Assembly: GCA_030390025.1 (NCBI GenBank)
Contig: CM059427.1
Coordinates: forward strand, 188,666,001 to 188,730,000
DNA length: 64,000 bases
Source of the DNA: Squalus acanthias
Taxonomy: Eukaryota
Reading direction: 5' to 3'
Positions 5,675-58,444 of this stretch are shown in pieces. Made by a program: the position numbers and the translations under genes. The notes below the pieces were generated by a model. It had not been told where the DNA came from and did not search any database. It saw only the letters and a list, made by a program, of their open reading frames with translations. The stretch's first letter is position 1. Each line of letters begins with the position of its first letter.

Positions 5675-6019
5675 GAAGCCAGAATTATATTTATTTTTTC
5701 CATCAGGAAGGCAGCTTTGTATTGAAAGGACCAGACATTCCTGGAAATTGTTCCATTGTCTGGGAATGGAGACCACACTCAGGGCAACAAACTACAAAGC
5801 AATTGGGAACTTTTAACAGAGAAGATCAGCGGTGGGCCGTGCAATGGAGCGAGGAGTACAATAATATACCAGGCATTTCTCAGAGGATACGTGAGGACTG
5901 GGGGACCCTTAATCTGAGAATCAGAAACCCCACCTTTGAACTTGCGGGATTGTTCACCTGGAGTCAGACACAGCCCAGTAAGAAAATCCTGAAACAGTAT
6001 GAAATATTTGGGATCAAAG
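5675..6019 (+). CDS. Receptor gene 1, exon C1: cysteine-less V-type Ig domain
   Basis: ttgcag acceptor, AAAG|gtaagt donor, 345 nt, phase 1-1. VLKG at the B strand, VWEW C strand, LNLRIRNPTFELAGLFTW E-F strands. Paralogous to 52382-52723. Confidence 0.9.
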
Positions 6020-8120: not shown

Positions 8121-8393
8121 TTGAGACAGATTCCCAGAGGCCTGTAATGGGCAGTGATATCACCCTCAGTTGTACCGTCTCCAGACTCTCAGATACAGTC
8201 AGTCTTCACTGGAAACCAAGAGACTCATCTCAGCAGAACAGGAGGAACAACACTGATGAGATCCATCTGAATAACACGGTCTATCTGATAGTCAGACACG
8301 TTGGAGCAGAAAATCAGGATTTGTACACATGGGAAGTGCAGGAAAATGACTCCATTGTTCTCACTGGAAACACAAATGTTGATGTGGATCAGA
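8121..8393 (+). CDS. Receptor gene 1, exon D1: C2-type Ig domain (F-strand Cys replaced by Trp)
   Basis: ttacag acceptor, A|gtaagt donor, 273 nt, phase 1-1. GSDITLSCTVS..LHW..DLYTWEVQE. Paralogous to 60349-60618. Confidence 0.9.
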
Positions 8394-11392: not shown

Positions 11393-11731
11393 ATTTACAC
11401 AATAAGTGTTACACACTTTATCGGTCAGGCACAGATCACAGTGAACTCTCCCTGATTTGTGAAGCTGAATCTGAGTTCATTAAAACTAACTGGACTTGGA
11501 GGTCACGTCATTTTCAGAATCAAGAGAAAGAAATAGCTTCTACTTTCAGATCTAAGCCTATCGAAGTAAACAGGACCTACTTTGGGGGTCGACTGGTGCC
11601 CACAGTGGGAAATCTTAATGGCAAGAACTTCAGTGTGAGGATTGTCCCCGTACTGTTTGAAGATGCAGGAGTTTACACTTGTTCTCTGGGGTTATTGAAT
11701 TATGTGACCATTAAACTAATCACAGTTAAAG
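11393..11731 (+). CDS. Receptor gene 1, exon A2: V-set Ig domain
   Basis: tttcag acceptor, AAAG|gtagga donor, 339 nt, phase 1-1, open. LIC..WTW..FEDAGVYTC, with framework near-identical to A1. Confidence 0.92.
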
Positions 11732-11772: not shown

Positions 11773-13174
11773 GGGTAGAGTTTCCGCTTTGGGCACAATC
11801 GGCGATTCCGGCACAAATTGCGCCAAAACTGCGCCCGTTTTGAAAAGTGTTTCCCCCCCACCCCCCGAGGTTCCACTCAATCTCATTTGCATATCACCAA
11901 ACACGAAATCTGCCCTGAACCAGCGCAATTGGTCAGTGATTTAAAACGTAATTTCTTTTTGCTAATTTTGCTTTAAAAATATTCTCGGCTACATTTAAGA
12001 ATGGTAACTTGGAGCAGTTTGCTTAATACAGCTGAAAGTGGGTTTATCACAAAAAATAAGCATTTTAAATCACAGTATCGATCCGCCACCTGTGAGTAAC
12101 CGATTTTAAATGACTGAAAATGTCATTAAAAAATATACAGAACTATTTTCTAGTTAGATTTGGGCACAGTACTCAGTTCCTTAGTAAATTTAAAAAAATT
12201 ATTTCAAATCCTTTCAAAACGTATGTATTCGTGTCCTTGCGACCAAAAGCTCCAGCTCCATTTTTGGGGCCTCCTCGTCGGCCTGCAACAGGCACAATTA
12301 GTGGAAACTCCCAATGGTGATTGGTTCACCCTGTGGGCGGGGCCAGTTTTGTGGGCAGGGCCAGTTTTGTGGGTGGGGCCAGTTTTGTGGGTGGTGCCAG
12401 TTTTGTGGGTGGGGCCAGTTTTGTGGGCGGGGTCAGTTTTGTGGGCGGGCCAGTTTTGTGAGCAGGGAACGTTTTGTGGGCGGGGTCAGTTTTGTGGGCG
12501 GGGTCAGTTTTGTGGGCGGGGTCAGTTTTGTAGGTGAGGCCAGTTTTGTGGGCGGGGTCAGTTTTGTAGGTGAGGCCAGTTTTGTGGGCGGGGTCAGTTT
12601 TGTAGGTGAGGCCAGTTTTGTGGGCAGGGCCAGTTTTGTGGGCGGGGTCAGTTTTGTAGGTGAGGCCAGTTTTGTGGGCGGGGTCAGTTTTGTGAGCAGG
12701 GAAAGTTTTGTGGACAGGGCCAGTTTTGTGGGCGGGGTCAGTTTTGTGGGCGGGGCCAGTTTTGTGAGCAGGGAAAGTTTTGTGGGCAGGGCCAGTTTTG
12801 CAGGTGAGGCCAGTTTTGTTGGTGTGGCCAGTTTTGTGGGCGGGGCCAATTTTGTGGACGGGGCCAGTTTTGTGGGCATGGCCAGTTTTGTAGGCAGGGC
12901 CAGTTTTGTGGGTGGGGCCAGTTTTGTGGACGTGGCCAGTTTTGTAGGCAGGGTCAGTTTTGTGGGCGTGGCCAGTTTTGTGGGCAGGGCCAGTTTTGTA
13001 GGCGGGGCCTGCTTCTAGCGCGATGTCTTTGAAACTAGAGCCAAAGATCACGGAAAATCGAGTTGCATTGAATGCAATTTGCGCTTAAAATTCCGCTATC
13101 GTTTGCGTTAGTTACGCCGATATCAGGCGAATTGTACCGAAAAAAACAACACAATGGGGTGCAAACTCCAGGAC
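11773..13174. mobile_element. MITE-like insertion in the A2-B2 intron
   Basis: Absent from the paralogous 78-bp intron 1938-2015. Imperfect TIRs GGGTAGAGTTT / AAACTCCAGGAC. Confidence 0.8.
12332..13010. repeat. 18-bp G-rich minisatellite (GGGCGGGGCCAGTTTTGT)n
   Basis: About 37 degenerate tandem units read directly from the sequence. Confidence 0.95.
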
Positions 13175-13211: not shown

Positions 13212-13481
13212 TCACAGCTGAACCATCTGATGCAGTGACTGAGGGAGACACCGTTACCCTGACCTGCTATGTCTCTGATGTCACTGAATCAATGAGACTT
13301 CTTTGGATCAGTAGTGATGGCAAAACTGTTGAAGAGAAAACTTTTAAGGACCGGAAGCAGGAAGAGGATTTGTTACGGCTGATTATTCAGAAAGCTGATC
13401 GAGACAGAAGGAACTGGACATGTGTTTTATTTCATCAAAACACGCCCAGCGTTTTAATTCCATATTATCTGAAGGTTAACA
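13212..13481 (+). CDS. Receptor gene 1, exon B2: C2-type Ig domain with WxC
   Basis: acacag acceptor, A|gtaagt donor, 270 nt, phase 1-1. GDTVTLTCYVS..LLW..RNWTC. Confidence 0.92.
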
Positions 13482-13758: not shown

Positions 13759-13990
13759 GCCCTGACCTGCTCTGTCTCTGATGTCACTGAATCAATGGAA
13801 TTTGTTTGGATCAGAAACTAAAGCAACATTGTTGAAGAGAAATCGTTCAATGGATGGAATTGGGAAGGGAAATCATTGAGACTGATTATTCAGAAAGCTG
13901 ACAGAGACAGAGGGAACTGGATATGTGTTTTCTTTTATCAAAACAGCCCCAGGTTTTACCCCTGTACTATCTGGAGCCCAGTGCTCAGTG
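13759..13990 (+). pseudogene. Relic B-type Ig exon (5'-truncated)
   Basis: LTCSVSDVTESM..SLRLIIQKADRDRGNWIC homology. In-frame TAA, frameshift near 13955, and donor gtaag changed to ctcag. Confidence 0.85.
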
Positions 13991-17296: not shown

Positions 17297-17400
17297 TGAG
17301 ACCACTTCCGGAGATTTGGATCATCACAGTTTCGGGCTACTTGTTGGTTAAACTGGGCGTTGCTGTTGGACTAATTTGCTGCTTGAAGAGGATGACCAGA
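17297..17400 (+). CDS. Receptor gene 1, transmembrane exon with intramembrane Lys
   Basis: tcacag acceptor, AGA|gtaaga donor, phase 1-0. (M)RPLPEIWIITVSGYLLVKLGVAVGLICCLKRMTR: a hydrophobic span followed by a basic stop-transfer. Confidence 0.85.
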
Positions 17401-19251
17401 GTAAGAATTTATTTAAGCTTTCCAGTAAATCAGGAATTAGTGCCGAGCTGTCACTTGACACTGAGAAAACTGATGTTCGTTGAACAGATATTATGTGGTC
17501 ACAAACTGTATTTTAAAATTTCATTTAAATATTGCACATTGTATTAAATTTAAAGGAATCATCAGTTAAAGAAAGCAATTGTTCCAAATTTGGTGAAATC
17601 TTAGAGCTTTGAATATTTTTCCTGATTCAAATGGCAATAGCTTCCCTGCTCCCACTTTCCATCAGGCTCTGAGGAAGGAATCAGGGCGATCTCGGAGGGC
17701 CATACCTGATTATCAATGAATGGACAATGCTCAAACTAGGAGCCCAATCTTTTAATATTTTTCACTGATTATTACAAATATTCCTCTTGGAAATTAATAA
17801 CTTGAAAGTTGTCAGAAACCAATATTTGAACAGTTAAAGCACAACCATTAAAAATTACGATAAAAGGAAATTACTAATGTATTCTGTGACAATTAATGAG
17901 TGCGATCATTTTAATGTGTGCTGTTATTCTTGTTGCTGTGGCCTGGTGGCGCCAGAGAGCTGCAGTAGTGTCTGGGCCAAAAATGAATTTGTCGTTCTGT
18001 AAATCACTTCCTCTGTGGCAGGTTTGGTTTACCTGATTTACTCATAGTCAAATCTCAGTCGATTCAAAAGCAAAGTTTCTGTTTCAGAGAGCTCTATCGT
18101 GTTTGTGTTCGAGGAAGGAGTGTTTCAAGGCTGTGTGCTTCTGGGTGAAGCGAGGCGTTGTAGAATGGGAACTATTGGGGTGAGAGGCACAGAAATGTGG
18201 TAACTAGTGGAAAGTTTGAACTGACATGAAGAATGTGAGGTAATCTGTATTGTTCAGGATGTTTACTTAGAATTACATAGAATTTACAGCACAGAAACAG
18301 GCCATTGGGCCCAGCAGGTCTGTGTCGGTGTTTATGCTCCACACGAGCCTCCTCCCACCCTACTTCATCTCACCCTATCGACATATCCTTCTATTCCTTT
18401 CTCCCTCATGTACTTATCCAGCTTCCCCTTAAATCAATCTGTACTATTCGCCTAAAACACTGCATATGGTTGCGAGTTTCCAGCGAGGAAGGAATAGGGA
18501 AATCTCTGAGGGCCAAACCTGATTATCAATGAATGAAATAAAAACAGATAATTAATGAACATTGCTCACACTAGGAGCCCAATATTCTATTTTTTAAATT
18601 TTTCCTTTAATTTACTATCGCAAATATTCCTCATGGAAATTGGAAATTAGTAAATTGCATGTCGTCAGAAACCAATATTATTTGAACAGATGTTTGAAAA
18701 TGCACAACCAGTAAAAATACAATAAACTGAACAGTGCGACTGTATTTAGTGAAAATTAATGATTATGATAAACTTTACATCAGATCACAGCTCAGGGAGG
18801 TAATAAAAGAGACAGAATCAGTAGCTTTAGTAGGAGAGCATTGTTCTGTCAGAAGCAGAGTTGTCAGTTCAAGGAGGTAACTTTACTGGTGAGGTCAGTC
18901 AACCACAGGGAGAACCTCTTAGAAACGTGGTCACACTATGACCATGACCTTTGACCGTATTTACATTGACACATTCATAGTAGGAAAAATCTTCCACAAT
19001 ATCTTCTATCAGTACCTGGAGTTAGTTTATCATTTTAATCAGGTCTGTTCCTTCCAATTACTGAAGCCTTTAATTGTTGAAATTATCTCATTAACACTGA
19101 GCCAGTGATGTGTGGGTCATGGTCTGTTCTGTTCCCCATTCTGTAAAATTACTCCTCTATTCGACTTCCTCTTTGTCCATCACTTCCAGTCCAGCGTTTA
19201 TTATTGAAGGATAAGCTCTTTATTTAAAGCACATTTCTTGCCTCTTGTCAG

Positions 19252-19359
19252 ATATCGAACAGCGGGAATCCACACGAGGCGACAGGAAATGAAATAGATG
19301 ATTCACAAGAAGCCGTCGCATTACAGACCCTGAACTCCGATACTGATCTGAGATCATAG
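19252..19359 (+). CDS. Receptor gene 1, probable terminal cytoplasmic exon
   Basis: Pyrimidine tract plus tgtcag acceptor, phase 0 matching the TM exon. ISNSGNPHEATGNEIDDSQEAVALQTLNSDTDLRS*. Confidence 0.65.
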   Translation: MSNSGNPHEATGNEIDDSQEAVALQTLNSDTDLRS

Positions 19360-19414
19360 AATGACTGATACAGCACAGAAGGAGGCCATTCAGCCCATCG
19401 TGCCTGTGCCCATC
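19356..19414 (-). mobile_element. 59-bp CR1 3'-terminal insertion
   Basis: ATAGAAT..TACAGCACAGAAGGAGGCCATTCAGCCCATCG matches the reverse CR1 tails elsewhere in the window. Flanked by GAGATC at 19350-55 and 19415-20. Confidence 0.8.
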
Positions 19415-20271
19415 GAGATCTGCAGTCTCTGGAAACTAGATCGACCCAACTTGGGAAACTTTAGAAATAGATTAGTGGTTTTATTCTGGAGTTATTTTGT
19501 GGTATTTTTTTATGTAGCTGGTTTAGTTTATATCCTGAAGTGTACATTTCAATAGTTCCCAGTCTCTGTATCTGTTACTTTACTTTACTAGTCCTAACTT
19601 GTCAGGTCGCTATAAGAAATTCTAATGTGTGGAACATCGTGCAGATGTTGGGCTGAATTCCTGATCTCCACTTGTGGCCGGTGAGGCTCCAGGCTGGGGA
19701 CACAGTTTTATAACTGTAGGGACTGACGGTGACCCAGTGGTACAGCCGTGTGTGGAGCTTGAAGTGTTGGGACGTGGATTTGTGACTGTGGGTCCCCAGT
19801 GAGTGATCTCAGCTGGACTCTCTCTGCAGAGGAGCTGAATGGAGCTGAGCTGCTACAAATGAGAAGGAATGAAACTCGGCTCAGTAAATATGGGCGTCTC
19901 CCCTGCACCTCCCAGCACCTGTTCACACAACGAGATCGCGGAATCTCCGGAGAATGTTGTCTCCATGCTCTCACCCAGGGAATTGTTTTACATCGGATTA
20001 CATAGGATATACAGCACAGAAACAGGCAATTCGGCCCAACCTGTCCATGCCGGCATTTATGCTCCACTCGAGCCTCCTCCCAACTTTTCTCATCTAACTC
20101 TATCAGCATAACTCGCTATTCCCTTCTCCCTCATATGCTTATCTAGCCTCCCCTTAAATGCATCGATACTATTCGCTTCAACCACTCCCTGTGGTAGTGA
20201 GTTCCACATTCTCAACACTCTCGGATTAAAGAAGTTTCTTCTGAATTCCCTATTGATTTCTTGGTGACTAT

Positions 20272-22309: not shown

Positions 22310-22387
22310 GGGAGAGTACATTTCCCTTTCATTTTGACTAAATTCTTTTAACCATTTATGGGAATGCATCTAAGGTAATGGATCTGT

Positions 22388-23066
22388 GTACATGATAAAC
22401 CCCTTCGAATCCAGCACAGCTCCAGTTCTGTACATGATAAACCCCTTCAAATCCAGCACAGCTCCAGTCCTGGACATGATAAACCCCTTCGAATCCAGCA
22501 CAGCTCCAGTCCTGTACTTGATAAACCCCTTCGAATCCAGCACAGCTCCAGTCCTGTACTTGATAAACCCCTTCGAATCCAGCACAGCTTGAGTCCTGTA
22601 CATGATAAACCCCTTTGAATCCAGCACAGCTCCAGTTCTGTACATAATAAACCCCTTCGAATCCAGCACAGCTCCAGTCCTGTACTTGATAAACCCCTTC
22701 GAATCCAGCACAGCTCCAGTCCTGTACATGATAAACCCCTTCGAATCCAGCACAGCTCCAGTTCTGTACATAATAAACCCCTTCGAATCCAGCACAGCTC
22801 CAGTCCTGTACTTGATAAACCCCTTCGAATCCAGCACAGCACCAGTCCTGGACATGATAAACCCCTTCGAATCCAGCACAGCTCCAGTTCTGGACATGAT
22901 AAACCCCTTCGAATCCAGCACAGCTCCAGTCCTGTACATGATAAACCCCTTCGAATCCAGCACAGCTCCAGTTCTGTACCTGATAAACCCCTTCGAATAC
23001 AGCACAGCTCCAGTCCTGGACATGATAAACCCCTTCGAATCCAGCACAGCTCCAGTTCTGGACATG
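22388..23066. repeat. 42-bp minisatellite, about 16 units
   Basis: Unit TACATGATAAACCCCTTCGAATCCAGCACAGCTCCAGTCCTG, highly homogeneous. Confidence 0.97.
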
Positions 23067-23694
23067 ACAAGACGGCTCAGCAAAAGCCTGAGATTGTTCT
23101 GTGTGAAACTTTCAGGCCTTTGATCTGCTCCTCGCTTTCATAATAAACCTGGACTCACTTCCCCAGATTCTGGGTCACAAATAGTTTATCAAAATGTACA
23201 GAAGTGTTACAGTGAATGAAAATGAAGTCAAGAGAGATTCCCTCAACTGAAGTGAGGTGTGATCTGGTTGCTGAGTCGTCGCCTCCTAATCCAAGTTCGG
23301 AGAGTCCCTTCTCATCCATTGTCTGTTCCAGACTGAGGAGAATCTGTGGGAGATGAGTGACTAAATATCAAACTGTGTGGGAGAGGGAGGTCATTGGGAG
23401 GGGGGACGGCCCATCACCACCTCAGATGCCAGTGCTGCCCTCATCCTGAGAATAAATATAAAAAGGATCCTTTTTCAGTGTGTATTTTCCAGAAGTTTCC
23501 TCCACAGCCTGTATTCTGCAGGGAAATAAAGTTTCTTCTCATCTTAACTCTGTCCTCAGGTTTCATATTTTTACTGAGCTCCTCTAGTTATTTATTCATA
23601 ATTCAACTTAAACTACCTGCTCACACCTAAATTGTCAGTCACTCTCATCAATTTAAAGATTTCGAGCATGTCATGTGTCCCCCATAATCTTCTT

Positions 23695-24682: not shown

Positions 24683-24961
24683 TGGCTGGATTTTGTCAGT
24701 GGAGGCGGGTTGGGTTCGGGTCAGGTGGTCGGCGGGTCCCGCCCCGCCTCCGATGTGAGGCGGGACAATTGAGCCATTTTGCCCTAATTGGGCACTTGAT
24801 TTCCAGCGTGTGGGACCCCCTGGCCCAATGAGTCTTTTGGTCCTGAAACTCGCCTCTGATGACGTCATCTATGCAGCTGCATTTAAGGCCTGTAGCAGCC
24901 TTGGTTCTTTTTCTGCCTTACAACTTTTGCAATTTACTTCTGAGGGATTCGTGCAACAACC

Positions 24962-26951
24962 ATGTCAGGCACAAGACAGAAGTGTGCACCCCGCTTCGAT
25001 GAGAACTCCCTCCAAGCTCTCATGGAGGGAGCAAGAGCGAATAAGGAAGTGCTGTTTCCTTCTTCAGGGAGGAAAAAAGTCTCCCCAACAGACCAAAGCT
25101 GTGTGGCTGCAAATGGCACAGGAGGTGAATGCCATTTCAATGTGCAGCAGAGCCTGGCTGCAGTGCAGAAAGAGGTTTCATGACCTTCTCTGCACAGGAA
25201 AAGTGAGTATTTCATCCACATGACCCTCAATCTCATCCCCATCGCCTCTCATCACCAGCACACTGCTTTATCAACCTCATCCTCCAAATCCCACTTGACC
25301 CTTACATCCCTGCACCCTTAACCATTCCCTCTCTCTGTATGTACACATTCACTTAACTATTCGACTATGCAGCCCTCACACTCCCTATCACTGTGATGCA
25401 ATGACAACAACTTACAACACACAGGGATGGCCCTTGGTCTTGGCACCTCACTCCATCTTTGTGTCCTTCTAAGCATCAATGCTATGCATTCTCTCCACTC
25501 ACTCCTTCATTCTCACTCAAACTCCACTTGTGTCCCTCATTGCAGGAATGGAGAGCCCACAATAAGAGGGAGAGGGTGAGGACAGGAGGAGGGCCACCCT
25601 CAATAGCCCAGCTCACCACTGTAGAGGAGGCGGCCCTGGAGATCGTGGGAGTCGAGGAGGATGCACAAGTGGGGGACGGACAGACGGGCGCATCAGAGCA
25701 AGCTTGTGACAGAATAGTTTTTCATCTCTCTCATTGACATTGCATGAGTGACTGATATTGATTCTGATGCTCTAACAGATTGACTTATGATCATCTGCAG
25801 AATTCAATGTGCATGCAATGTTTATCTCACATGTCTAACTCTTTCCTTTACTCACCCACAGGACCATCGACAGCCACCCTCCCCACTGTCCAGGAGGAAC
25901 AGCCTGAGACACCAGACTCCTCAGAGGAAGCTGCAACCTCTGAGGGCGCAGCGTCTGCAGAATTAAGCGCATCCAGCACCAGCGCAGACACTCACACCTC
26001 GGTGGGACCTTCAGGAGATAGAGTAGAGTTGTCACCTGGTGTATCACAGCTCACAAGTGAGCATCAGCAGATGGTGGAGACAGGGACAGCAGTGGAGAGT
26101 CCTCGTCAGAGGGCACAGGACACTCCCAGCTCGGCTCCGCTGCATGTCGACCCTGTGTCTCCGGGTCCATCCAGAAGGAGAGCGGTGCTGGAACTCCAGG
26201 AACAGGTGCAGGGGTCTCTGGCAGGTTTTGTCTCCAGGGTCGCTGCGAGCGTGGAGCGAATGGAGGAGTCCATCACTAACATGATCAGAGCCTTTGTGGG
26301 GAGCCATTGGCACATGAACGCATCACCACGGAAAGGATGGCTACCTCCGTGGTAAGGCTGGCTACCGTAGAGGAGAGGATGGCTATGGTAGAGGAGAGGA
26401 TGGCTACGGCCATGGAGGAGCTTAGTTGCCAGGGTCTTGAAAACATGGTCATTGTTCAGAATAGACTGACATCTCTTGAGGAGCGATGGCCAGCTATTGA
26501 GCAGAGAAACCAGACCTTCATGGAAGTCCTCTGGAGTAGGACTTCCAGTGCAGAAACGGGTCCTCATGGCCCCCCTGAAGTGCAGAAAGGGGCTGTCCAG
26601 CCACTTGCTAGCTCTGAAGTGGGGCTGACCCATGAGAGGGATGTTGGTGGCAGACAACAAGGAAGTGGGGGCTCCTCTCCAAGTGCTCAAATGACCATGT
26701 CACTGCAAAGCCCTCGGTCAGAGCCCCACCAGAGTCCTCACCCAACTGAGATCGGTGTCTCAGCCCCTGCACAGCCGCAGGAGCAGCAGACTTTTGCCAA
26801 GCCCTCACAGGCTCGCAACCCCAGAGGATGCCCGCCAAAGGTGTCGAGGCAGGAGCAGCAAGAAAGTGAGCAAGGGGCCTCCACATCTGCTGAAGCCACA
26901 GGGGAAGCACCACGTAGGAGTACGCGTAAGAGGAAGATAAAGCACAAGTAG
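24962..26951 (+). pseudogene. Harbinger Myb/SANT (trihelix) partner gene, 3 exons (about 24962-25202, 25546-25705, 25862-26951)
   Basis: APRFDENSLQALMEG..W..AQEVN..RAWLQCRKRFHDL, then AHNKRERVRTGGGPP, coiled-coil heptads and a basic C-terminus. GT-AG introns; frameshifts present. Confidence 0.85.
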
Positions 26952-27209
26952 TCACAAGGGTAGTAACTTGGGTGTAATGTTGTGTTTATTTTTGAAAAGC
27001 CGTCCGTGAATTGATGTGATAAAAAAACTTGATGGCAAACTGTTGAAGTTGTGGGCTGTGTCATTTCGGAAATTGGACTTCCACATTGAGGGCTTAGGGT
27101 GAATTGTAATTGTCAGTATGCTGGTCAGAGTGATAGGAATCCGCAGGTTCTTGGCCATTGTCGATGCTCTGGTAAGAAGGTGCGAGGCAAAAGTGTTTGA
27201 TTGTGCAGG

Positions 27210-30085
27210 CTAAGCAAATCTGGCCAAGATGAGTGCATCCCTTGCATCCCGGGCAGCAATGTGCTTGCGTGCTGCTGCCGCTGGTTGATGCGCCTCCGCA
27301 AGCTGTTTGTTGTCGCTCTCCTCCTCCTCCTCATCATCCTCATCCTCATCTGAGGAGGCTATGTGATGAGCCACTTGTACCTCAGTCAGCTGCAAGCCAC
27401 GATGCTGTGCCATGTTGTGAAGTGCACAGCAGACCACGACGATTCTGGAGACCCTGGCTGCTGAGTACTGCAGGGCTCCACCTGACCTATCAAGGCATCT
27501 GAATCGCATCTTCAGCAAGCCGATGGTTTGCTCGATTATGGATCTGGTGGAAATGTAGCTGGAGTTGTAGCGCTCCTCAGCTTCATTGGATGGCCTCCTC
27601 AATGGCGTCATTAGCCACGTCTTCAGGGGATAGCCCTTGTCCCCAAGTAGCCATCCGAAAAACTTGGTTTGGCAGAATGAAGAGTGGAGTCACACTAGAC
27701 TGCGCAGGATGAAGGAGTCATGGCAACTGCCAGGGTACTTGGCGCAAATTGCAAAATTTCCTTCTGGTGGTCACACACCAGCTGCACGTTGAGGGAGTGG
27801 AAACCCTTGCGGTTGACAAAAATACCTGGATTGTGATGGGGTGCCTTAAGGGCCACATGTGTGCAGTCAACGATGCCCTGCACCCTTGGAAAGCCTGCCA
27901 GAATAGCAAATCCAACCGCACGCGCCGTTAAACTTGCGTGATAGTTGGAGAAGTTGATGTAATTGTGCGCAATGGCAAAGAGGGCATCGGTTACCTGCAT
28001 GATGCAAGTGTGTGCGGCCACCTGGGAGACGTCGCTGATGTTCGCTGTAAAGTTTCGCAATTATCGCGATTCGAAATAACATAAGAGAAGCAGATTTGTT
28101 TCATCAGTTTTATTAAACGAAATGCTGTCATGATAATAAAGGACACAGAAGCCTGTAAAATGGCCGCTGCGCATCGTGGAAGAAGCTTCCAGAAATACAG
28201 TGGGCAGACAAGATGGCGTCGAATAAACATTCAATATAAGATTGGATCATACTCGGTAAACATTGATAAAGACAGGATGCAACCCGTTTGCATTTGAAAC
28301 AATAGCAAAGATATAAGTGCTGGAATCGTTTTTCCTATGCACAGCAAGGACATTGTACTGGGCAATCGAAGGCCCATCCAGACACATCAATACACAAATA
28401 CCCCCACGGCTCTACAATGAGAGAGACATTGACGGGTGATTAAGTCAGTATTTGGGGGGCCCCAAAACCAGTCAGGGAGATGATTCATACACATCCTGGC
28501 TGGGTCAACAATGTGGAAAACATTAACGGATAGTTGGCCAGTTTCAGGTGTTACCGAAACCCGTTAAGAAAGATAATCGCCCCATGCTGGGAGTTTTGTG
28601 CGCCAATATTACACAAAGGACAAACATTAAGATTTGAGCGGGAGATAAGCGGACACAGGACTATAACTATAGTGAACAAATGTCCATCGATCTCTGATTC
28701 GCTTGCCGCTTCATGAACTCGCTTGACTGGTGAGCTTTTGATTTTCTCTCTGGACTTTGTTGACTCTTGACTTTTAGCCGTACTGGTCGGTTATTCGAAT
28801 GTTGGGTGGAGCTCAATCGGAACGAGCCGCCTCGACAAGGGCAAGTAACAGGGTACACCATCCCGAGTGTCGGTAAACGGTGTCTGGACCCGGAGGCCCG
28901 AAGAGACGAGACGAGACGAGAAGAAAAGGAGAAGAATCCACGTGCCGCCACGGTCAGTAAACCCCGACCGCGCCCGAAAATATAAATAAAGAACTTTTCA
29001 TTGAAATCTACCGACAACCTGTATCGAGCACAGGAAGACTCTTCTTTGAACTGTGTCCGAGGTCCGTCGAGTTCTTCATGACAACAGGGAGTCTGGCCTG
29101 CTTGTCGCAGCAGCGAAAATAAACAAGTGGGGTACAGAGCCCTTCCAAACACGTGACAGTCAGGCGCTGCAGCGAAACGAGCTGAGTGCCTCACTTTAAA
29201 ATTCTCCGAAGTAACACGAGTGGTGAGTATGTTTTCCGATCCTACAAATCTAGATGTAGTGTAGGTATGGTTAAGGGAGGGTGGTTTTATTAAGGTTAAA
29301 GTATAATGTGTTCCCCTTTTTACGATGTGCCGTGCGTTCTTCATTTCCATAGACCAAGCTTTATGAATGTATGTATACTTGTACTCTCGTTAATTTGCGC
29401 CTATGACATGTACTTCATGATTTTGGACGTTATGCAATAAAGATTTCCATTTCGTACTATTCAACCGGGTCTATTTGAGTTTTCTCTGCATTACTGCTCC
29501 CTGCACCTAAGTCCAGTGTTAGAACCGTAAGGGCGAGTGGGTCGAACCACTCACAGGTGCTAATTGCAATAAGGCTGGCCGGAGACCAGAGCAAGCAATA
29601 GTATCAGGCAACGAAGACCTAACCTCGCACCAGCATCGTCTGAGAGACACACAACCCTTACATTGCTCTTGATCCCTGGAATGAGCCTGAAGCAAAAAAG
29701 TTGAGTGCGGTGGTGACTTTGACGGCCACTGGTAAGGGGTGTCCACCCGCTCCTCTGGGCTCCAGGTCTTGCTGCAGCATTGCGCAGATGTCACCCACTA
29801 CCTCTCGCGAAAGTCTGAGCCTCCTTTGGCACTGCTGCTCGTCATGTTGAAGTAGCTCATCCTCTGTCTGTAGACCCTGTTTTCGGGGTATCTCCTGCGG
29901 CGATGTATTTCCATGCGCTGGCGCCTTCTGGCCTGTGCAGCTTCAGGTGGGTGAGCAGTAGCTTGGCGCTCCTGTTTTTGCTCCTGCTGTTGGTGCTGCT
30001 GTTGTTCAGGGTTCTGCTGCTGCTGCCGCGGCTGGTCTTCATCCGAATCTGATGTCTAGGAGGAAAGGAAATAAATGGTTCCCAT
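27210..30085 (-). pseudogene. Harbinger transposase disrupted by a solo LTR
   Basis: [58 protein letters not shown]. Early stop and frameshift. Confidence 0.92.
28046..29662 (+). mobile_element. Solo LTR (about 1.6 kb) of an LTR retrotransposon/ERV
   Basis: TGTAAAG...CCCTTACA termini, 4-bp TSD TCGC/TTGC, internal AATAAA near 29436. Removing it restores the transposase frame (FQGSRANISD). Confidence 0.8.
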
Positions 30086-30989
30086 GCTTCTGTTATGTAC
30101 CTCAGTTGAGGAAGCGCTCAGTCAAGGTGGGGAGAGGGGTTTCCCAGGAGGTCACACTGGAGATGGGTCTCAGCCTCCAAACTTCCACAACAATGAGTGG
30201 GCCTGCTAAAAGTTCTCCCAGACCTGAGACAACAAATTTCTGCCACCTGCAAATGATCATTGGTGAAAACTCCTTTTTAATGGTGGAGATGCCACTGTTA
30301 GTAAGCAACCCACTTGTGAGGCCGCCAGGATTAACTGGCGTGTTCCAGAGGAGACGTGCAGCATGGGGGAAATGTGTTAAATTCAGAAAGGCCTCTCAAA
30401 ATGGGATTATAGAGGCAATTAACTGGCTGCTAATGGCCTTAAGGGCCTATCCCACCTCTTGGAGGCGGGATGGAAACGGGGTCTGAAACCCCGCTTTGGG
30501 GAAAATTGCTCAGAGGCGGGCTGGAGGCGGGATCGGAGCCGCCCGCCATTTTTTGCGAATTTAACTCCTCACACGCCTGCAAACCCGCCTCCTCGGGCCT
30601 GGCAAAATCGAGCCCTATGCCTCTATTTATGAAGCCCAGGATCCCATATGTTTTTTTAACTGCTTTCTCACCCTGCCCTGTCACCTTCAACAATTTGTGC
30701 ACATACACTCCCAGATCTCTCTGTTCATGCTGCCCCTTTAGAATTGTGCCCTTTAGTTTATATTGCCTCTCCTCGTTCTTCCTCCCAAAATGAATCACTT
30801 CAGTGAAAAGACCTCCATCTGTCACTCACCAGACTTTGACATAACCAGAAGGGAACATTCACAGGGTTTAGGATCCTTCCTGTTTCGATGCAGAAGTTAC
30901 CTGTTTTTAACCAGCTTCCACTGTTTTATTTTTACACGTACTATTTTAAAATAAAACCTACAAAAATCTGACTACATTGAAAATCATTC

Positions 30990-33900
30990 CTTGTGGTAAT
31001 TCCCATCTTTAGAAAGGATCGGGAAACTGGAAGAGGTGAAGGGGTCGCCTTATTGATTAAAGACACTATTAAAACAGTAGTAAAAGAGGGTAGAGGTAAG
31101 GGAAAGCAATCGACGGTTACTCTGTGGTTAGAATTGAGCAACAAGAGAGGACAAAACTGTAATGGGAGTTGTCTACAGGCCTCCTGATAGCAGCAATGAC
31201 GTGGCAGAATGTATTAATTTAGAGATTAGAGAGGCTTGTTGCAAAAGCAGAGTTGCTTTACTGGGAGACTTTAATTTTGATGCAGGCTGGGAAGAGCAGA
31301 GTCGCTCAAGTCAAAAAGCAGTGAATTTTTTGAGTGCATTCAAGGTAGTTTTCTCGAGCAATATGTTCTAGAACCAACAAGAAGGCAGGCCATACTAGAT
31401 TGAGTCATGAGTAATGAGCTAGACTCAGTGAATAATCTAACAGTAAGGGAACATTTATCTAACAGTGATAATAATATGACTGAATTCAATGTTAGGTTTG
31501 AAAAGGAGAAACGTAACACTGTTACTAAGATTTTAGATTTTGGTAAAGCTAACTTTAACGAGATAAGGCAGAGACTGACGAGAGCAATCTGGTCAAAACT
31601 GTCACCGGGTAAAACTACAGAGGAACAGTGGGAGTTGTTCAAAAAGGAACTTAATGCAGGACCAGTCTATAACCCTAAGGGACAACTTACCAAATTACTT
31701 ACCAAATAAAACAGCCATGGCTGACAAAAGAGGTGAGAGATAACATCAAACTAAAGGAAAGAGCATAGAGAAGTGCAAAGAATAGTGTAGATCCAGGGGA
31801 CTGGGAGAGATATAAAGAACAGCAAAGCAAAACAGAAAACTAGTAAGAGCTGCAAAAAGGGAACGGAAAGAAACTTGCGAGAGATATCAAGATTAACACA
31901 AAAAGTTTTACAATTATATTTGAAGAAAAAGAGTAGTCAAGGGTAATGTCGGCCATTAAAAACAGATGCTGGTAATATTGCAAATTAAATTAAGCAATGG
32001 CAGACTTGTTGATTAATGACTTGGGCTCGATTTTGCCAGGCCCGAGGAGGCGGGATTGGAGGCATGTGAGTTGTAAAAATCGCAAAAAATGGCGGGCGGC
32101 TCCGATCCCGCCTCCATCCCGCCTCCGAGCAATTTTCCCACATTCGGGGTTTCAGAACCCGTTTCCATCCCGCCTCCAAGAGGCGGGATTGGCCCTGAAT
32201 GCCCTTAACTACCAGTTAATTGCCTCTATTATCCCATTTTGAGAGGCCTTTCTGATTTTAGCACTTTTCCCCCATCCTGCACATCTCCTCTGGAGCATGC
32301 AAGTTAATCCTGGCGGCCTCACAAGTGGACTGCTTACTAACAGCTGCAGCTCCACCATTAAAAAGGAGTTTTCACCAATGATCATTTGCAGGTGGCAGAA
32401 CTTTGTTGTCTCAGGTCTGGGGGAACTTTTAGCAGGCCTACACATTGTTGTGGAAGTTTGGAGCCTGACACACATCTCCAGTGTGACCTCCTGGGAAACC
32501 CCTCTCCCCACCTTGACTGAGCGCTTCCTCAACTGAGGTATATAGCAGAAGCATGGGAACCATTAATTTCCTTCCTCCTGGACTTCAGATTCGGACGAAG
32601 ACCAGCCACGGCAGCACAGAACCATGAACAACAGCATCACCAACAGCAGCAGCAACAACAGGATCGCCCAGCTGCTGCTCACCCACCTGAAGATGCACAG
32701 GCCAGAAGTCGCCAGCGCGCGACCACATTGCTGCCCAGGATGCAAGGGGCGCACTCATGTTGGCCAAATTTGCTTAGCCTGCACAATCAAACACTTTTGC
32801 CTCGCACCTTCTTACCAGAGCATCGACAGTGGACAAGAACCTGCGGATTCCTATCACTTTGACCACCATACTGACAATTGCAAGTTGCCCTAAGCCCTCA
32901 GTGTGAAAGTCAATTTGCGAAATGACATAGGCCACAACTGCAACAGTTTGCCATCAAATCTGTTTATCATCACAATTCAAGAATGGCTTGTCAAAAATCA
33001 ATACAACAGAACACCCAATTGACTGCACTTGTGACTACTTGTGCTTTATTGTCCTCTTACGCATGCTCCTACGTGGTGCTTCCCCTGTGGCTTCAGCAGA
33101 TGTGGAGGCCCCTTGCTCACTTTCTTGCTGCTCCTGTCTTGACACCTTTGGCGGCCGTTCTCTGGAGTTATGAACCTGTGAGGGCTCGGCAACAGTCTGC
33201 TGCTCCTGCGGCTGTGCAGGGGCTGAGACGCTCATCTCAGTTGGGTGAGGACTCTGGTGGGGCTCTGACCGAGGGCTTTGCAGTAGCATGGTCATGTGAG
33301 CACTTGGAGAGGAGCCCCCACTTCCTTGTTGTCTGCCACCAACATCCCTCTCATGGGTCATCCCCACTTCAGAGAAAGCAAGTGGCTTGACAGCACCTTG
33401 CTGCACATCAGGGGGGCCATGAGGACCCGTTTCTGCACTGGAAATCCTACTCCAGAGTACTTCCATGAAGGTCTGGTTTCTATGCTCAATAGCTGGCCAT
33501 CGCTCCTCAAGAGATGTCTGTCTATTCTGAACAATGAACATATATTCAAGACCCTGGCGACTAAGCTCCTCCATGGCCGTAGCCATCCTCTCCTCTACGG
33601 TAGCCAGTTTACCACGGAGGTAGCCATCCTTTCCACGGAGGTAGCCATCCTTTCCGTGGTGATGCGTTCATGCGCCTATACCTCCACAAAGGCTCTGCTC
33701 ATGTTCGCGATGGACTCCTCCATTCGCTCCACACTCGCAGCGACCCTGGAGACAAAACCTGCTGGAGACTCCTGTACCTGTTCCTGGAGTTCCAGCACCG
33801 CTCTCCTTCTGGATGGACCCGGAGGCACAGGGTCGACATGCAGCTGAGCCAAGCTGGCAGAGTCCTGCGCCCTCCAATGAGGACTCTCCACTGCTGTCCC

Positions 33901-35935
33901 TGTCTCCACCATCTGCTGATGCTCACTTGTGATCTGTGATACATCAGGTGACAACACTACTCTATCTCGCGAAGGTCCCACCGAGGTGTGATTGTCTGTG
34001 CTGGTACTGGGTGCGCTGAATTCTGCTGACGCGCGCCCTCAGGGGTTGGAGCTTCCTCTGAGGAGTCTGGGGGCTCAGGCTGTTCCTCCTGGACAGTGGG
34101 GACTGGGGCTGTCGATGGTCCTGTGGGGGAGTAAATGAAAGAGTTAGAGATGTGAGGTAAAGGTTGCATGCACATTGAATTGTGCAGATGATCATAAGTC
34201 AATCTGTTAGAGCATCAGAATCATTATCAGTCACTCATGCAATGTCAATGAGAGAGATGCTAAACTATTCTGTCACCAGCTTGCTGTGATGCACCCTGTC
34301 TGTCCGTCCCCCACTTGCGAATCGTCTTCCACTCCGGCGATCTCCAGGGCCTCCTCCTCTGAAGTGGTGAGCTGGTCTATTGAGGGTGGCCATCTTCCTG
34401 TCCTCGCTCTTTCCCTCTTATTGTGGGCTCTCTTTTCCTGCAATGAGGGACACAAGTGGAGTTTGAGTGAGAATGAAGGAGTGAGTGGAGAGAATGCATA
34501 GCATTGATGTTTAGAAGGAGACAAAGGGCCCTCCCTGTGTGTTGTAAGTTGTCGTCATTGCATCACAGTGATAGGCAGTGTGAGGGCTGCATGGTAGAAT
34601 AGTTAAGTGAATGTGACCCCAGAGACAGAGCGAATGGGTAAGGGTGCAGGGATGTCAGTGTCAAGTGAAATGTGGAGGAAGAGGTTGGCAAAGCAGAGTG
34701 CTGGTGATGAGAGGCGATGGGGATCAGATTGAGGCTGATGGAAATGTCATACTCACTTTTCCTGTGCAGAGAATGTCATGAAACCTCTTCCTGCACTGCA
34801 GCCAGGTTCTGCTACACATAGAAATTGTGTTTACCTCTTGGGCCACTTGCAGCCACACAGCTTTAGTCTGCTGGGGAGGCTTATTCCTCACTGAGGAAGG
34901 GAAGAGCACCTTATTATTTGATCTTGCTCCCTCCACCAGAGCTTGGAGGGAGGCCTCATCGAATCTTGGAGCACACTTTCATCTACTGGTGGATGTAATT
35001 GGGGAAGGAAGTGCTCAGAACAATGGGCATAAAGTTTAAAGGCTGAAAAAGAAGCAAGGCTGCTTGCAGGCCTTAAATCCAGCAGCATTGATGACATCAT
35101 CAGAGGTGACTTTCTGCATGAAAAGGCTCATTGGGCCAAGGGTTCCCACACGCTGGAAATCAAGTGCCCAATTACAGCAAAATCGCACTTCTGTCCCTCT
35201 TTACATTGGAGTCCAGATCCTGACACGACGACCACTTGACACGCCCCTAGCCCGCCCCCAATGACAAAATCCAGCCCTTTGTGTCAGTCTGCACAGTCGA
35301 GGAATAGGATAATATACCTAACATTCCAGGCAAACTAATAAAGGACTGGAACTTATTAAAGTTAATGTAAGCAAGAAAATAGTATTAGAACAAATGAATG
35401 GCACTAAAGCCTACTCCTGCTCCTATTTCTTATGTTCTCACATCCCCAGAACCTGATGGTTTCCACCCCAGGGTTTTAAAGGAAGTAGGTGAGGAAATTG
35501 CAGATACTTTAGCCATAATCTACTGAAGCTCTCTCAATTCAAGAATTGTCCCTTTAGATTGGAAATTTTCAATGTAACTCCATTATTTAAGAAAGATGAG
35601 GGAAACAAGGAAATTATAGACCTGCCAGTCTAATATCTGTTATGGGGAAGTTATTGGAATCTATAATTAAGGACAGAGTGACTGAGCACATGGAGAGATT
35701 TGAGCTGATTAGAGAGAGCCAACATGGATTTGTAAAGCCTATGTCATGTCTAACGAACCTAAATGATTCTTTTGAGAACGCAACTAAAGTAGTAGACAGG
35801 GGAATGTCTATGGATGTAGTTTATATGGACATCCTGAAGGCATTGGATAAGGTTCCAAATAAGAGACTGTTAGCTAAATTTAAAGCTCTTGGAATTGAAG
35901 CCAAATTATTGACCTGGTTAGGAGATTGGTTAGAC
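30990..35935 (+). mobile_element. CR1 LINE ORF2 (endonuclease to RT), decayed and split by Harbinger 32023-35277
   Basis: FRKDR..GEGVALLIK, GVVYRPP, LLGDFN, HLSNSDNN; resumes with GKLLESIIKD..SQHGF..SCLTNL. Confidence 0.88.
32023..35277. mobile_element. Harbinger element, same family as 24683-30615, inverted, transposase core deleted
   Basis: TIRs GGGCTCGATTTTGCC / GACAAAATCCAGCCC. Three-exon Myb gene on - (about 33035-34990); transposase reduced to its N- and C-terminal ends (32553-32778). Confidence 0.9.
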
Positions 35936-47480: not shown

Positions 47481-47568
47481 ATGAGGCTACGATTTTTCTG
47501 CAGCAAAATGCCAGCTGGTTTGATGTTCAGTTTCTTTGTGTTTCTACTTCCGTCTGTTTTCACACAAA
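47481..47568 (+). CDS. Receptor gene 2, signal-peptide exon (exon starts 47459)
   Basis: ttacag acceptor at 47458. MRLRFFCSKMPAGLMFSFFVFLLPSVFTQ then a phase-1 donor A|gtaagt, in frame with 52382. Confidence 0.75.
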
Positions 47569-48882: not shown

Positions 48883-50580
48883 TATAGAAACATAGAAGAT
48901 AGGAGCAGGAGTAGGCCATTCGGCCCCTCGAGCCTGTTCCGCCATTTAATGAGATCATGGCTGATCATCCAAATTCAGTACCCTGTCCCTGCTTTCTCCC
49001 CATATCCCTTGATCACTTTAGCCTTAAGAAATATATTTAACTCCTTTTTGAATATATTTAATGAATTGGCCTCAACTGCCTTGTGTGGTAGAGAATTCCA
49101 CAGGTTCACCACTCTCTGGGTGAAGAAATTTCTCCTCATCTCAGTCCTAAATGGCTTACCCCTTATTCTTAGACTGTGACCCCTGGTTCTGGACTCCCCC
49201 GCCATCGGGAACATCCTTCCTGCATCTAGTCTGTCTAGTCCTGTTAGAATTTTATAAGTTTCAATGAGATCCACTCTCATTCTTCTAAACTCTAGTGAAT
49301 ATAAGCCTAATCGACCCAATCTCTCCTCATTCGTCATTCCTGCCATCCCAGGTATCAGTCTGGTGAATCTTCGCTGCACTCTCTCCATGGCAAGAACATC
49401 CTTCCTCAGATAAGGTGACCAAAACTGCACACAATACTCAAGGTGTGGTCTCACCAAGGCCCTTTACAACTGCAGCAAGACATCCTTGCTCCTGTACTTG
49501 AATCCTCTCGCAATGAAGGCCAACTGAAGTGGATAACCTCGCATTTATCCACATTATACTGCATCTGCCATGCATCTGCCCAATCACCCAACCTGTCCAA
49601 ATCATACTGGAGTTTCTCTGCATCCTCCTCACAGCACACACGCCCACCCAGCTTTGTGTCATCTGCAAACTTGGAGATATTACATCTAGTTCCCTCGTCT
49701 AGATCATTTATATATATTGTGCATAGCTGGGGTCCTAGCACCGATCCCTGCGGGACCCCACTAGTCACTGCCTGCCACTTGGAAAAAGACCCGTTTATTC
49801 CAACTCTTTGCTTCCTGTCTGCAAACCAGTTCTCTATCCAAGACAGTACCTTACCCCCAATCCCATGTGCTTTAACTTTGCAAGCTAATCTCTTATGCGG
49901 GACCTTATCGAAAACCTTCTAAAAGTCCAAATACACCACATCCACTGGTTCTCCCTTATCTATTCTACCAGTTACATCCTCAAAAAATTCCAGTAGATTA
50001 GTCAAGCATGATTTACCTTTTGTAAATCCATGTTGACTTTGTCCGATCCTGTCACTGTTTTCCAAGTGCTCTGCTATTACATCTTTTATAATGGACTCTA
50101 GCATTTTCCCCACTACCGATGTCAGACTTACTCGTTTTTTCCCGTTTTTTTCTCTACCACCTTGTTTGAATAGTGGGGTAACATTAGCTATCCTCCAATC
50201 CATGGGAACTGTTCCAGAATCTATAGAATTTTGGAAGATGACCAGCAATGCATCTACTATTTCTCAGGCCACTTCCTTAAGTACCCTAGGATGTAGATTA
50301 TCAGGCCCTGGGGATTTATCGGCCTTCAATCCCGTTAATTTCCCTAACACCATTTCCCTACAAATTCAATTTCTCCCTCTCATTAGACCCTATGTTCCCC
50401 GACATCTCTGGGAGGTTATTTGTGTCCTCCTTTGTGAAGACAGAACCAAAGTATGTATTTAATTGGTCTGCGATTTCTTTGTTCCCCATTATAAATTCCC
50501 CTGATTCTGAGTGCAAGGGACCTACGCTTGACTTCACCAATCTTTTTCTCTTCACAGATCTATAGAAGTTTTTACAGTCA
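48883..50580 (-). mobile_element. CR1 (HER1-like) LINE, RT and 3' end
   Basis: GVPQGSVLGP, KFADDTKLGG and RPHLEYCVQFWSP motifs plus the tail. Confidence 0.92.
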
Positions 50581-51129
50581 TTGACTGAATGATGTGACCA
50601 CTGTCACCAGAGGCCACCTGGAAGTATCCAAATGCATTAACGTTAAATGTCACCGTCACAGCCACAGTTGTCACCTTTCACAGATAAGGCAAAGCACCTG
50701 GTGGAAAGAGGCTGCAAGTCAGCTTTATCTTCCAAGGGCTGGTTTATCTCTGTCACGTTTCAGACAAGCGTGGAGTGGACACAGGAACCACCTGATCTCC
50801 GCCCACCTCGTGAAACCCCATCACAGGGAGGCGACCCGACATAACCGTATCCTGCACCAATCTCTCTCCCGCTAGCTCCTGTCCACCCTGATAATGTCCC
50901 CTGTAGACCAGGAGTCACAAGGACATTTGGAGCCTTTATTTTCTGAAATTAGCCATGTCCTCGCTTTTGTATGTATGTTATATAGAATTACAAATTATTT
51001 TACAGCACAGAAACACCTCCCTCATGTACTTATCTATATTCAGAAAGCTCTGGTAATAAATACACAGAATATCTACTGGAAGTGTTCTGTTTTTCCCTGT
51101 AACAGTGCCTGCAGTGAAGGTGACATGAT

Positions 51130-51860
51130 ACAGTGCTTTCTCCTCATGTATTAGTGCTTCATTGTAACCTTCTCTGGACTGAACTCCTCAATGAAGGAGC
51201 TTTGCCAGCTTCTTGGGATTGTAATGGGAGAGGATTTCACTCTCTCTTCTTGCCCAATTTTGGATAGATTATGGTCGGCAGGGGCAGAAAGTGGGGATGG
51301 GGATCCGGCGGGCTGCTCCCTGCAGATTGTCGTCGCTTCACTGAATATATGGACACAAATATGGAGAGATTTATTCAAATTGCGTGGAGAGGCCAAGTGT
51401 TATCAGATGCTACATTCACTGTCATTACTGCCAGAACAATGCTGGAACACAAGGGACAGCAGCATGTTCCCGGCATCTAGCGTTGCGTTGGCTTGTGGGA
51501 GGGGATTTCAATTTCAAATATCTTTCTGAAGTAAAGCAATTGATCATGAGGCGATCAATCACCCGCCAAATTTGTCATTGATCCATAGTTGCCCCTCCTC
51601 TTCAGCTGCCTCGTGGGTAACCAGCCCTGATCTGCTGCTGCACGACCTCGAGACCCGCAGCAACCACCTCCCTCCCTCTCCCAGGTGGGTTCCTCAGATC
51701 AAAGCACGAGTCCTGCTGGGAGCCGCAATAATTATGGAAATGATGCTGATCTCAGGAAATTCCCCGGGGTTCACGGTTTGGGAAGACAGGCGGGCACGGA
51801 CTCTGTCACGCTGACCCACAGACAGATTATGGCCAAGTGGAAAATCCTGCCTCCCATTGT
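51130..51860 (-). mobile_element. Old Harbinger transposase remnant
   Basis: Decayed CALHNEALI..RRKH-like C-terminus and SICVHIFSEATTICR HTH-region similarity. AAAATCCTGCC terminus near 51850. Confidence 0.45.
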
Positions 51861-52381
51861 TATCGGTAATCCTGTGGGTAGCCTGGTCACTGGTGGTCCA
51901 GGAGAACCAACAACGTACTGGGCATTACACAAGAGGAGGGGAGATCACTTGTAGAGATCGCTGGCCTGATTAATGAGCCCGAAGTGATGTGACTGCACCA
52001 GTACTGTATTCAGTTTTAGGAGAATACTGATTATTGTGATGGTATTTCAGATTTCTCAACAATATGGGAGTAATGATTCCCCTTCCACACTCCCAGTGAA
52101 TGCTGGAAATACGGATTCTGAAATTGGACACTGCAGGCCCACGAGGTCAGAGTGCAGTGGCAGAAATTCACCCTCTAATGTCCTAAAGTATCACTGGATT
52201 AGGCCAGATTATTCCAGACAGACAGCTCTTCACCGGGGTGTGTATGTGTCATTGCTGAATCCGTTGTATATAAAAAATAAGACTGTAAATAAATGAAGTC
52301 CAATATTAATCATTCCAAACATGGGATTAAGGAGTTGCAATTTAAATATTAAAATACTTACATTGTTCCTCTTTCTAACAG

Positions 52382-52723
52382 GAAACCCAAATCATATTTA
52401 TTTTTTGGATAAGGGAGATGACATTCCATTAAAAGGACCAGACAATCCGGGGAATGGCCCTGTTGTCTGGGAATGGAAACCACACTCAGGGCAAGAAATC
52501 CAGCGGCTGGTTACTTTTCACAAAGGGAGTTCGAGCTGGTGGGACGCACAATGGAACGATCACTTTAGAAACAGCGACTTGTACCAGATGATAGAATGGA
52601 ATTATTGGACCATTAATCTGAGAATTAAAAAACCCACATTTAAATTTGCGGGATCGTTCACCTTGACTAAAACACAGCCGAATAATAAAATCCTGAAACA
52701 GTACGAAATATTTGGGATCAAAG
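52382..52723 (+). CDS. Receptor gene 2, exon C: N-terminal cysteine-less V-type Ig domain
   Basis: taacag acceptor, AAAG|gtgagt donor, 342 nt, phase 1-1, open. LKGPD..VWEWKPHSGQ..INLRIKKPTFKFAGSFTL..KILKQYEIFGIK. Confidence 0.9.
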
Positions 52724-52976
52724 GTGAGTGGGACAAAGTCTAGAAAAGATTCAATAAAATGATTCTCAGTAAATAATTTCATGTGTAATGATGAGAGATT
52801 GTCAGGATCACGTGAGATTTATATCGCCCAGTGCAGAGAGCATCTCTCATTAAAACAACCAGGGGAAAGATTTTGTTCTTTGTTTCCCCTGAAATGGTCA
52901 ACATGAGTAAAAACATTTCGACAATTTCACCAGAAATAGCAAACCGAGGAATCTACCCCACAGAGAGTATTATGGT

Positions 52977-57975: not shown

Positions 57976-58444
57976 TCTCCCATTTCAGAGGGCAGTTGCT
58001 GTGGGTCTGGAGTTACAGGTCAGGACATCAGATTTCCTATCCTAAAGGACATTAGTGAGCCAGATGGAGTTTTTAATGGCAATCTGATAAGTTTCATGGT
58101 TGCTATTACTGATACTAGTAATTATTCCAAATTTATTTAATTAACTGAATTTAAATTGCCCAGCTACCGTGGTTGGGATTTGAACTCACCTCGCTGGGTT
58201 ATTAGTTCAGGCCTTTGGATTACTCGCCCAGTGACATTACCATTACACTACACTCTCTCTAGGAAGTGCTGAATACTGTTACCAATAGGTCCCTTGTAGT
58301 AATAAGCCTCAGCGCGATGGGACAGGAATAAGATTGGCCAGTTTCACTGCTCCTGATTGCTATCCGTGGAAATTGAACTATGCCAAGGAGTTAACAGCTT
58401 CATGAAAGCAGGGAGAGACATGGCAGAGAAAAAGAGATACATTG

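Follow-up and report, generated by a model that had tools for sequence, protein, structure and literature searches.

Does a receptor gene with a lysine in its transmembrane (TM) segment and a tail free of signaling motifs encode the activating half of a paired-receptor system in a shark? The question was raised by a stretch of 64,000 nucleotides of the Squalus acanthias genome (C3:188666001-188730000), which is referred to as a whole as the window and was analyzed together with searches of the 3.7-Gb genome. For its first gene, the initial annotation had proposed a CD4-like ectodomain wired to an ITAM adaptor, with a possible inhibitory paralogue in the same cluster. To our knowledge, few paired activating/inhibitory Ig receptor families have been described for cartilaginous fish, and the receptors by which shark NK-like and myeloid cells weigh self versus non-self are, as far as we know, an open question. 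Judging from the sequence features presented below, gene 1 is probably an activating member of a clustered paired-receptor family, which would signal with a DAP12-type ITAM adaptor via its central Lys.

Exon structure of gene 1

Gene 1 consisted of a leader exon, eight Ig exons arranged as (V-C2)x4 and all in phase 1, a TM exon, and a tail exon. The frame was open for 913 aa with no stop, and every intron was bounded by GT-AG, the stretches upstream of the window included. The leader exon (C3:188654513-188654591) and the exons of D1 (around C3:188660925) and D2 (around C3:188664448) were located upstream of the window. The remaining Ig exons were found on the forward strand of the window, comprising the V-type D3 (1596-1937, AG/GT, phase 1), the C2-type D4 with WxC in strand F (2016-2285), the V-like D5, a second copy of the D1 type (5675-6019), the C2-type D6 with the strand-F Cys changed to Trp (8121-8393), the V-type D7 (11393-11731), and the C2-type D8, again with WxC (13212-13481). 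The canonical Cys pair was missing from D1 and D5, with no Cys in D1 and one each in D5 and D6. WxC was confined to D4 and D8, and YxC or YxW was found in D2 and D6. A partial C2 exon copy, degenerate and with an in-frame stop and a frameshift, was present in the following intron (13759-13990, forward strand) and was also found in several paralogues.

The ATG used by the neighboring gene 2 is followed in gene 1 by a stop after two codons, so that in gene 1 only the next ATG starts an open frame; in several database homologues, the start lies a few codons further downstream than the latter. The closest database relatives of the window were shark proteins (Heptranchias, Pristiophorus), with up to 83% identity on one exon.

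Several repeats were also observed. One tandem array with an 18-bp unit repeated 38 times occupied positions 12332-13009 in the D7-D8 intron, and another with a 42-bp unit repeated 16 times was located downstream of gene 1 (22387-23067). A large inverted pair of transposon-like repeats (24684-35276 and 48884-57996, 87-91% identical) contained a transposase-like ORF and was accompanied by LINE reverse-transcriptase fragments. The leader exon also had an additional, inverted copy on the minus strand 15 kb upstream of gene 1 (C3:188639937).

Membrane anchor and cytoplasmic tail

The TM peptide was encoded by positions 17299-17400 of the forward strand, within an exon (17297-17400) preceded by AG and followed by GT in phase 0. 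The Lys codon AAA (17350-17352) specified residue 11-13 in the best hydrophobic windows of 21-23 residues, placing the Lys at mid-membrane as initially described, with a Tyr four residues before it. The single tail exon (19252-19359, forward strand), defined by the contig joint and the reading frame, contained 35 codons without Tyr and the stop codon 19357-19359. After the last Leu, the tail thus comprised KRMTR plus 35 aa, giving 40 aa in place of the predicted 41 or so, and Tyr, CxC/CxH, and the EP repeat were all absent, as had been predicted. The juxtamembrane CC, for which palmitoylation had been considered, was present in gene 1 but was not conserved: among 16 shark/ray-type Lys-TM proteins, five had CC, 12 had at least one Cys in this place, and four had none.

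The initial annotation had called for the TM and tail exons to be confirmed in cDNA. The joint 17400->19252 (GT..AG) was found in contigs of all four runs examined, which came from two studies with two organism labels, were available as contigs, and are RNA by guess, none being recorded as such. The D8 exon (13481) was joined to the TM exon in one of the four runs. One contig, X1, had no differences over the TM exon and 18 over 19252-19558, so its source may be a paralogue, an allele, or a related species rather than the gene 1 locus. The contigs may reflect paralogues, so that the TM-tail splice is established for the gene class rather than for the gene 1 locus itself. The phase-0 joint excluded the other reading frames of the tail exon. 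An alternative tail exon at a well-formed acceptor (17666), giving a 17-codon end with a Tyr and no YxxL, was dropped as unsupported, since it had no joint among the joints listed and its conservation did not exceed that of the remaining intron.

The stop codon of gene 1 was supplied by a SINE-like insertion of about 60 bp (19350-19420, forward strand) flanked by a 6-bp target duplication (19350-19355 and 19415-19420), which removed five residues from the older tail. Of 22 tail exons found in the genome, 21 could be read and 20 of these had no Tyr, and in three of the 14 Lys genes the tail was broken by stops or a frameshift. The remaining exon, that of a Lys-TM gene at C3:187725248, read EYVTL where the others have sequences like EAVAL, which is a single YxxL after acidic residues that was either gained or retained.

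An ITIM-bearing neighbor and the genomic cluster

The inhibitory paralogue that had been suspected was identified as the next gene. Gene 2 encoded an intact 586-aa receptor with four Ig domains, an uncharged TM segment, and the two ITIMs IHYGSI and VIYAQI. Its leader (47481-47568, placed by genomic splice sites), D1 (52382-52723), and D2 (60349-60618) exons were located on the forward strand of the window, and its TM segment and ITIMs lay beyond it (C3:188735907-188751084). The splicing of the ITIM genes was based on genomic splice sites and database models, not on reads. Fourteen further genes with this TM type were found on the same contig.

Genome searches identified around 45 family genes with four or eight Ig domains within about 3 Mb (C3:186.43-189.52 Mb), the gene counts for the cluster being lower bounds. 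The Lys-type TM exon had 23 copies in the genome, 14 with Lys, three with Ile, and six with Gln, and all six Gln copies were damaged by a frameshift, a lost donor, or an insertion. The second TM type had 16 copies, 15 of them on C3; 15 were uncharged in the core and one had an outer Arg, and matches to ITIM exons were found downstream of most copies. Along the cluster, the 14 Lys-TM genes were interleaved with 15 genes of the second type. The cluster was bordered at one end by MAG/CD33-like Siglec exons and at the opposite end by a RhoGAP exon, as determined from 19 sampled stretches of 10 kb.

Individual loci showed additional features. In three genes (C3:188597871, 188114333, and 187062828), the Lys was replaced by Ile with intact splice sites, leaving neither a charge nor a Tyr motif, and the TM segment of an ITIM-class gene at C3:188249812 carried an Arg close to its outer end. 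Extra copies of ITIM exons that lacked their own nearby TM exon occurred at C3:187.26-187.29, 189.30-189.33, and 186.60 Mb. A recent segmental duplication linked C3:188.09-188.20 and 188.57-188.69 Mb, where the D1 exon of gene 1 was identical to the copy at 188167601 and the D1 exons of the neighbors were near-identical. Immediately next to the receptor cluster lay a cluster of Siglec-like (MAG/CD33) genes in which C2 exons were repeated (C3:186.32-186.41 Mb). At a distance of 12.6 Mb, a divergent four-Ig member with 30-49% identity, a likely uncharged TM segment, and an IHYASI exon was found at C3:173.787-173.814 Mb, and dispersed, partly broken family copies were located at C26:26.26-26.28 Mb, C9:7336192, and C1512.

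Relatives in other species

A search with the V exon returned 66 longer shark and ray proteins, nearly all annotated as "uncharacterized", comprising nine Lys-TM proteins with Tyr-free tails, 46 with another TM segment, and 11 for which no TM segment was called. Among the 46, at least one ITIM was present in 40 and two or more in 35. Conservation of the Lys, on which the initial proposal had been made to depend, was assessed using a TM profile in which the Lys was masked. When 248 stored proteins were compared with this profile, 17 shark and ray proteins matched at E < 1e-7, nine of which had been used to build the profile and eight of which were new, and all 17 carried the Lys. Tyr(-4), Leu(-3), and Leu(+7) were invariant in 19 aligned Lys-TM segments, the Tyr having belonged to the selecting motif. 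In the Lys-TM homologues P0021, P0022, P0071, and P0078, the tail was reduced to 5-11 residues. Thus, the Lys is kept and the tail is not.

One family member carries a misleading name. The nurse shark "obscurin-like protein" V9NJF3 (P0035) has eight Ig domains and 59% identity on the V exon, but an uncharged TM segment, unlike gene 1, and its name is an automatic label.

A family profile search gave 428 matches at E <= 0.001, and among the best 150 of these 428, which were listed, the family extended to chimaera, bichir, sturgeons, bowfin, eels, tarpon, mormyrid, pike, cyprinids, characins, catfish, and frogs. Among 30 matches checked by name, 27 had uncharacterized or hypothetical entries, one was a "CD276 antigen homolog", and two were the CD4 and LAG-3 of the coelacanth. 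The bowfin and sturgeon members had a GYLxVK TM segment and Tyr-free tails, which suggests but, given the weak score of this segment against the shark TM profile (E 0.17), does not demonstrate a shared origin of the Lys in sharks and these bony fish. The frog relatives comprised ITIM forms and outer-Arg forms, with weaker evidence of membership (23% identity). Word-indexed searches with a distant alignment and with a frog member gave six and two matches, respectively, and the only other match of the frog protein was a family member from a stingray (E 3e-11). Some ray and frog relatives (P0005, P0034, P0081, P0159, and P0172) had an outer Arg instead of the Lys, which suggests a separate FcR-gamma-type class; the manta-ray proteins P0005 and P0034 and the unlabelled P0081 also had ITIM-free tails.

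The adaptor and a proposed mechanism

According to the portion of Feng et al. (PMC1440944) available to us, type I partners of DAP12 carry a Lys near the center of the TM segment and partners of FcR-gamma an Arg near its outer end. A single Lys in a poly-Leu helix is described there as sufficient for pairing with DAP12, with little else in the helix being of importance. Gene 1 displayed the features of a DAP12 partner at the sequence level, namely a central Lys in a type I TM segment, a short Tyr-free tail, and linked ITIM paralogues with similar ectodomains. Since the central Lys is conserved, the tail is dispensable, and ITIM twins exist, coupling is most likely of the DAP12 type.

We consider it unlikely that gene 1 is instead an activating receptor whose partner is FcR-gamma, CD3-zeta, DAP10, or another membrane chain, which the invariant Tyr(-4) would help to select. 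This reading is favored by the presence in the genome of FcR-gamma and CD3-zeta TM exons with an acidic residue, and DAP12 and DAP10 genes were not found there by two weak searches performed without a DAP12 query sequence. The DAP10 profile gave one match below the cut-off, which read as non-coding, and a degenerate DAP12-like pattern gave four matches, all in repeats. The invariance of the Tyr and the two Leu in the 19 aligned Lys-TM segments is also more than binding to DAP12 requires according to the accessible part of PMC1440944. However, the same source reports that a KIR with a central Lys failed to assemble with FcR-gamma, which favors an outer Arg, and the outer-Arg relatives in rays and frogs suggest that an FcR-gamma-type class is a separate one. 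A complex prediction with the TM peptide and two FcR-gamma TM peptides gave a score of 0.04, which speaks neither for nor against this partner.

With a DAP12-type partner, the Lys of gene 1 would bind the Asp pair of the adaptor dimer, and the receptor would need this dimer to reach the cell surface. Ligand binding would then lead to Src/Syk signaling through the ITAM of the adaptor, and the ITIM sister receptors would recruit SHP-1/2. Recombination or gene conversion may keep the ectodomains of both classes alike, and this likeness leads us to propose the same or overlapping ligands, which would probably be contacted by D1, with its variable C'-D patch as the likely binding face. The family may act on shark leukocytes as a sensor of the balance between self and pathogen.

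Ectodomains and constraint in the two classes

When 36 D1 exons were placed in a tree, with 12 Lys and 13 ITIM rows labelled, the two classes were intermixed, with eight label changes versus a mean of 8.6 after shuffling, which is the pattern expected of paired receptors. Accordingly, D1 identity between Lys and ITIM rows (0.916) was similar to that within the classes (0.913 and 0.919). In the tree of the membrane-proximal V exon, the labels clustered weakly, with four changes versus 6.3, and 18-22 of 500 shuffles gave a value as low. The sawshark proteins P0047 (Lys) and P0053 (ITIM) were 97% identical over 435 aa.

Variation in D1 was concentrated in residues 46-85 or so, where both synonymous and replacement differences were raised. 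Pairwise dN/dS among paralogues was about 1, at 1.01 (95% 0.69-1.57) for D1, for which nine of the 36 rows were left out (divergent subfamilies, duplicates, and one frameshifted row), and 1.13 (0.66-2.23) for the D7-type exon. These values are no proof of positive selection and are compatible with relaxed constraint.

They also fit the reading that the Lys-TM forms are non-signaling decoys or decaying duplicates, in which the Lys serves for retention, oligomerization, or nothing at all. The loss of the Lys from nine of the 23 TM exons of this type, the stop behind the first ATG of gene 1, and the broken copies, which are common, point in the same direction. We nevertheless regard decay as improbable, given that the Lys was present in 17 of 17 strong shark and ray homologues, that a similar GYLxVK segment occurs in bowfin and sturgeons, that spliced contigs were recovered from four of four runs, and that the six Gln copies are the broken ones.

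The preferred reading, an activating receptor coupled to a DAP12-type adaptor, follows a textbook signaling design. What is gained is a cluster of around 45 genes containing both classes on a CD4/LAG-3-like scaffold, together with database relatives, nearly all "uncharacterized", that span sharks, rays, bowfin, teleosts, and frogs, which provide concrete candidates for investigation. Three questions become testable, namely whether the earliest jawed vertebrates already had DAP12-type coupling, whether a KIR-like multigene system was also built on the CD4 scaffold, and how the patchwork variation of D1 arises. A bolder scenario, which we hold to be rather unlikely, is that the family is ancient within jawed vertebrates, forms the sister group of CD4/LAG-3, and constitutes the KIR-like system of sharks. 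In that case, dozens of activating and inhibitory receptors on the CD4 scaffold would read polymorphic MHC via a hypervariable D1, the Lys-TM module would predate the split of sharks and bony fish, and the family would have been lost in amniotes.

Comparison with known systems

The shark members of the CD4/LAG-3 family, as covered in the accessible part of PMC10768021, offered the first comparison. Both systems have a rod of V-C2 units with one exon per domain, activating and inhibitory relatives, and, within every unit of four domains, WxC in the fourth. The V-C2 build and the WxC of D4 and D8 therefore bear out part of the CD4-like ectodomain initially proposed, but the eight Ig domains, the separate clade, and the different locus do not. 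LAG-3 and CD4 were among the best PDB sequence matches (E 5e-6 to 1e-3), the family profile retrieved those of the coelacanth, and they were the top fold matches of a P0052 model that was so poor (pLDDT 51, 11 sequences) that these matches are leads only. That gene 1 is a true CD4/LAG-3 coreceptor binding MHC class II on T cells is nonetheless very improbable, as its tail lacks the Cx(C/H) and (F/Y)xxL(D/E) motifs (criterion from the same source) and its D1 contains no Cys. The CD4 and LAG-3 rows formed their own clade (98/96) in a midpoint-rooted tree with no outgroup, in which two of the ten rows were assigned by name and eight by tail motif. None of the eight matches to a coelacanth LAG-3 query fell within the cluster, the best being on the unplaced contig C3283, so that the cluster does not match a tandem LAG-3/CD4 locus; its flanks hold Siglec-like and RhoGAP genes. 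The shark family further departs from CD4/LAG-3 in having four or eight Ig domains, a first V domain without Cys, YxC rather than WxC in D2, TM Lys or classical ITIMs as candidate signaling elements in place of the LCK clasp or FxxL, and dozens of genes rather than two. On C3283, V and WxC-type C2 exons were observed in two sets of opposite orientation, which probably represent the CD4/LAG-3 locus of the shark.

Teleost G6f-like (G6fL, PMC3528668) and mammalian G6F/G6B share the presence of four Ig domains, and language-model features placed both a shark and a tarpon member closest to their clusters, results that serve as leads only. However, G6fL carries its own ITAM and YxN according to the part of PMC3528668 available to us, whereas the gene 1 tail has no Tyr and no ITAM was seen among the family rows examined; G6fL was outside the tree. 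DICP and NITR likewise form clusters of inhibitory, activating, and ambiguous forms, and DICP can be built as D1-D2-D1-D2 (bioRxiv 10.1101/2021.06.11.448072, seen in part). In contrast to the shark family, with no Cys pair in D1 and D5 and a TM Lys, that source describes DICP domains in which C23/C104 are retained, accompanied in some by additional Cys, and activating forms with a TM Arg. No named DICP or NITR occurred among the family search matches listed.

No description of the shark receptor family or of a shark DAP12 was found in the literature, where subscription papers and supplements (e.g., PMC3964593) may hold one, and the accessible part of PMC6795676 contained nothing on the family. 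We conclude that the family is real, apparently unnamed, and of a known paired-receptor type, and that it is apparently set apart from CD4/LAG-3, G6fL, and DICP, with the skate MDIR lying outside the comparison.

The known type is represented by KIR2DS/KIR2DL, with which the shark family shares the central TM Lys with a short tail, clustered ITIM twins with a near-identical ectodomain, and gene birth and death. Siglec-14/-5, TREM, CD300, and PILR are further paired receptors coupled to DAP12. The shark family differs from the KIR type in its unrelated ectodomain, in its range from cartilaginous fish to amphibians, and in an adaptor coupling that is putative.
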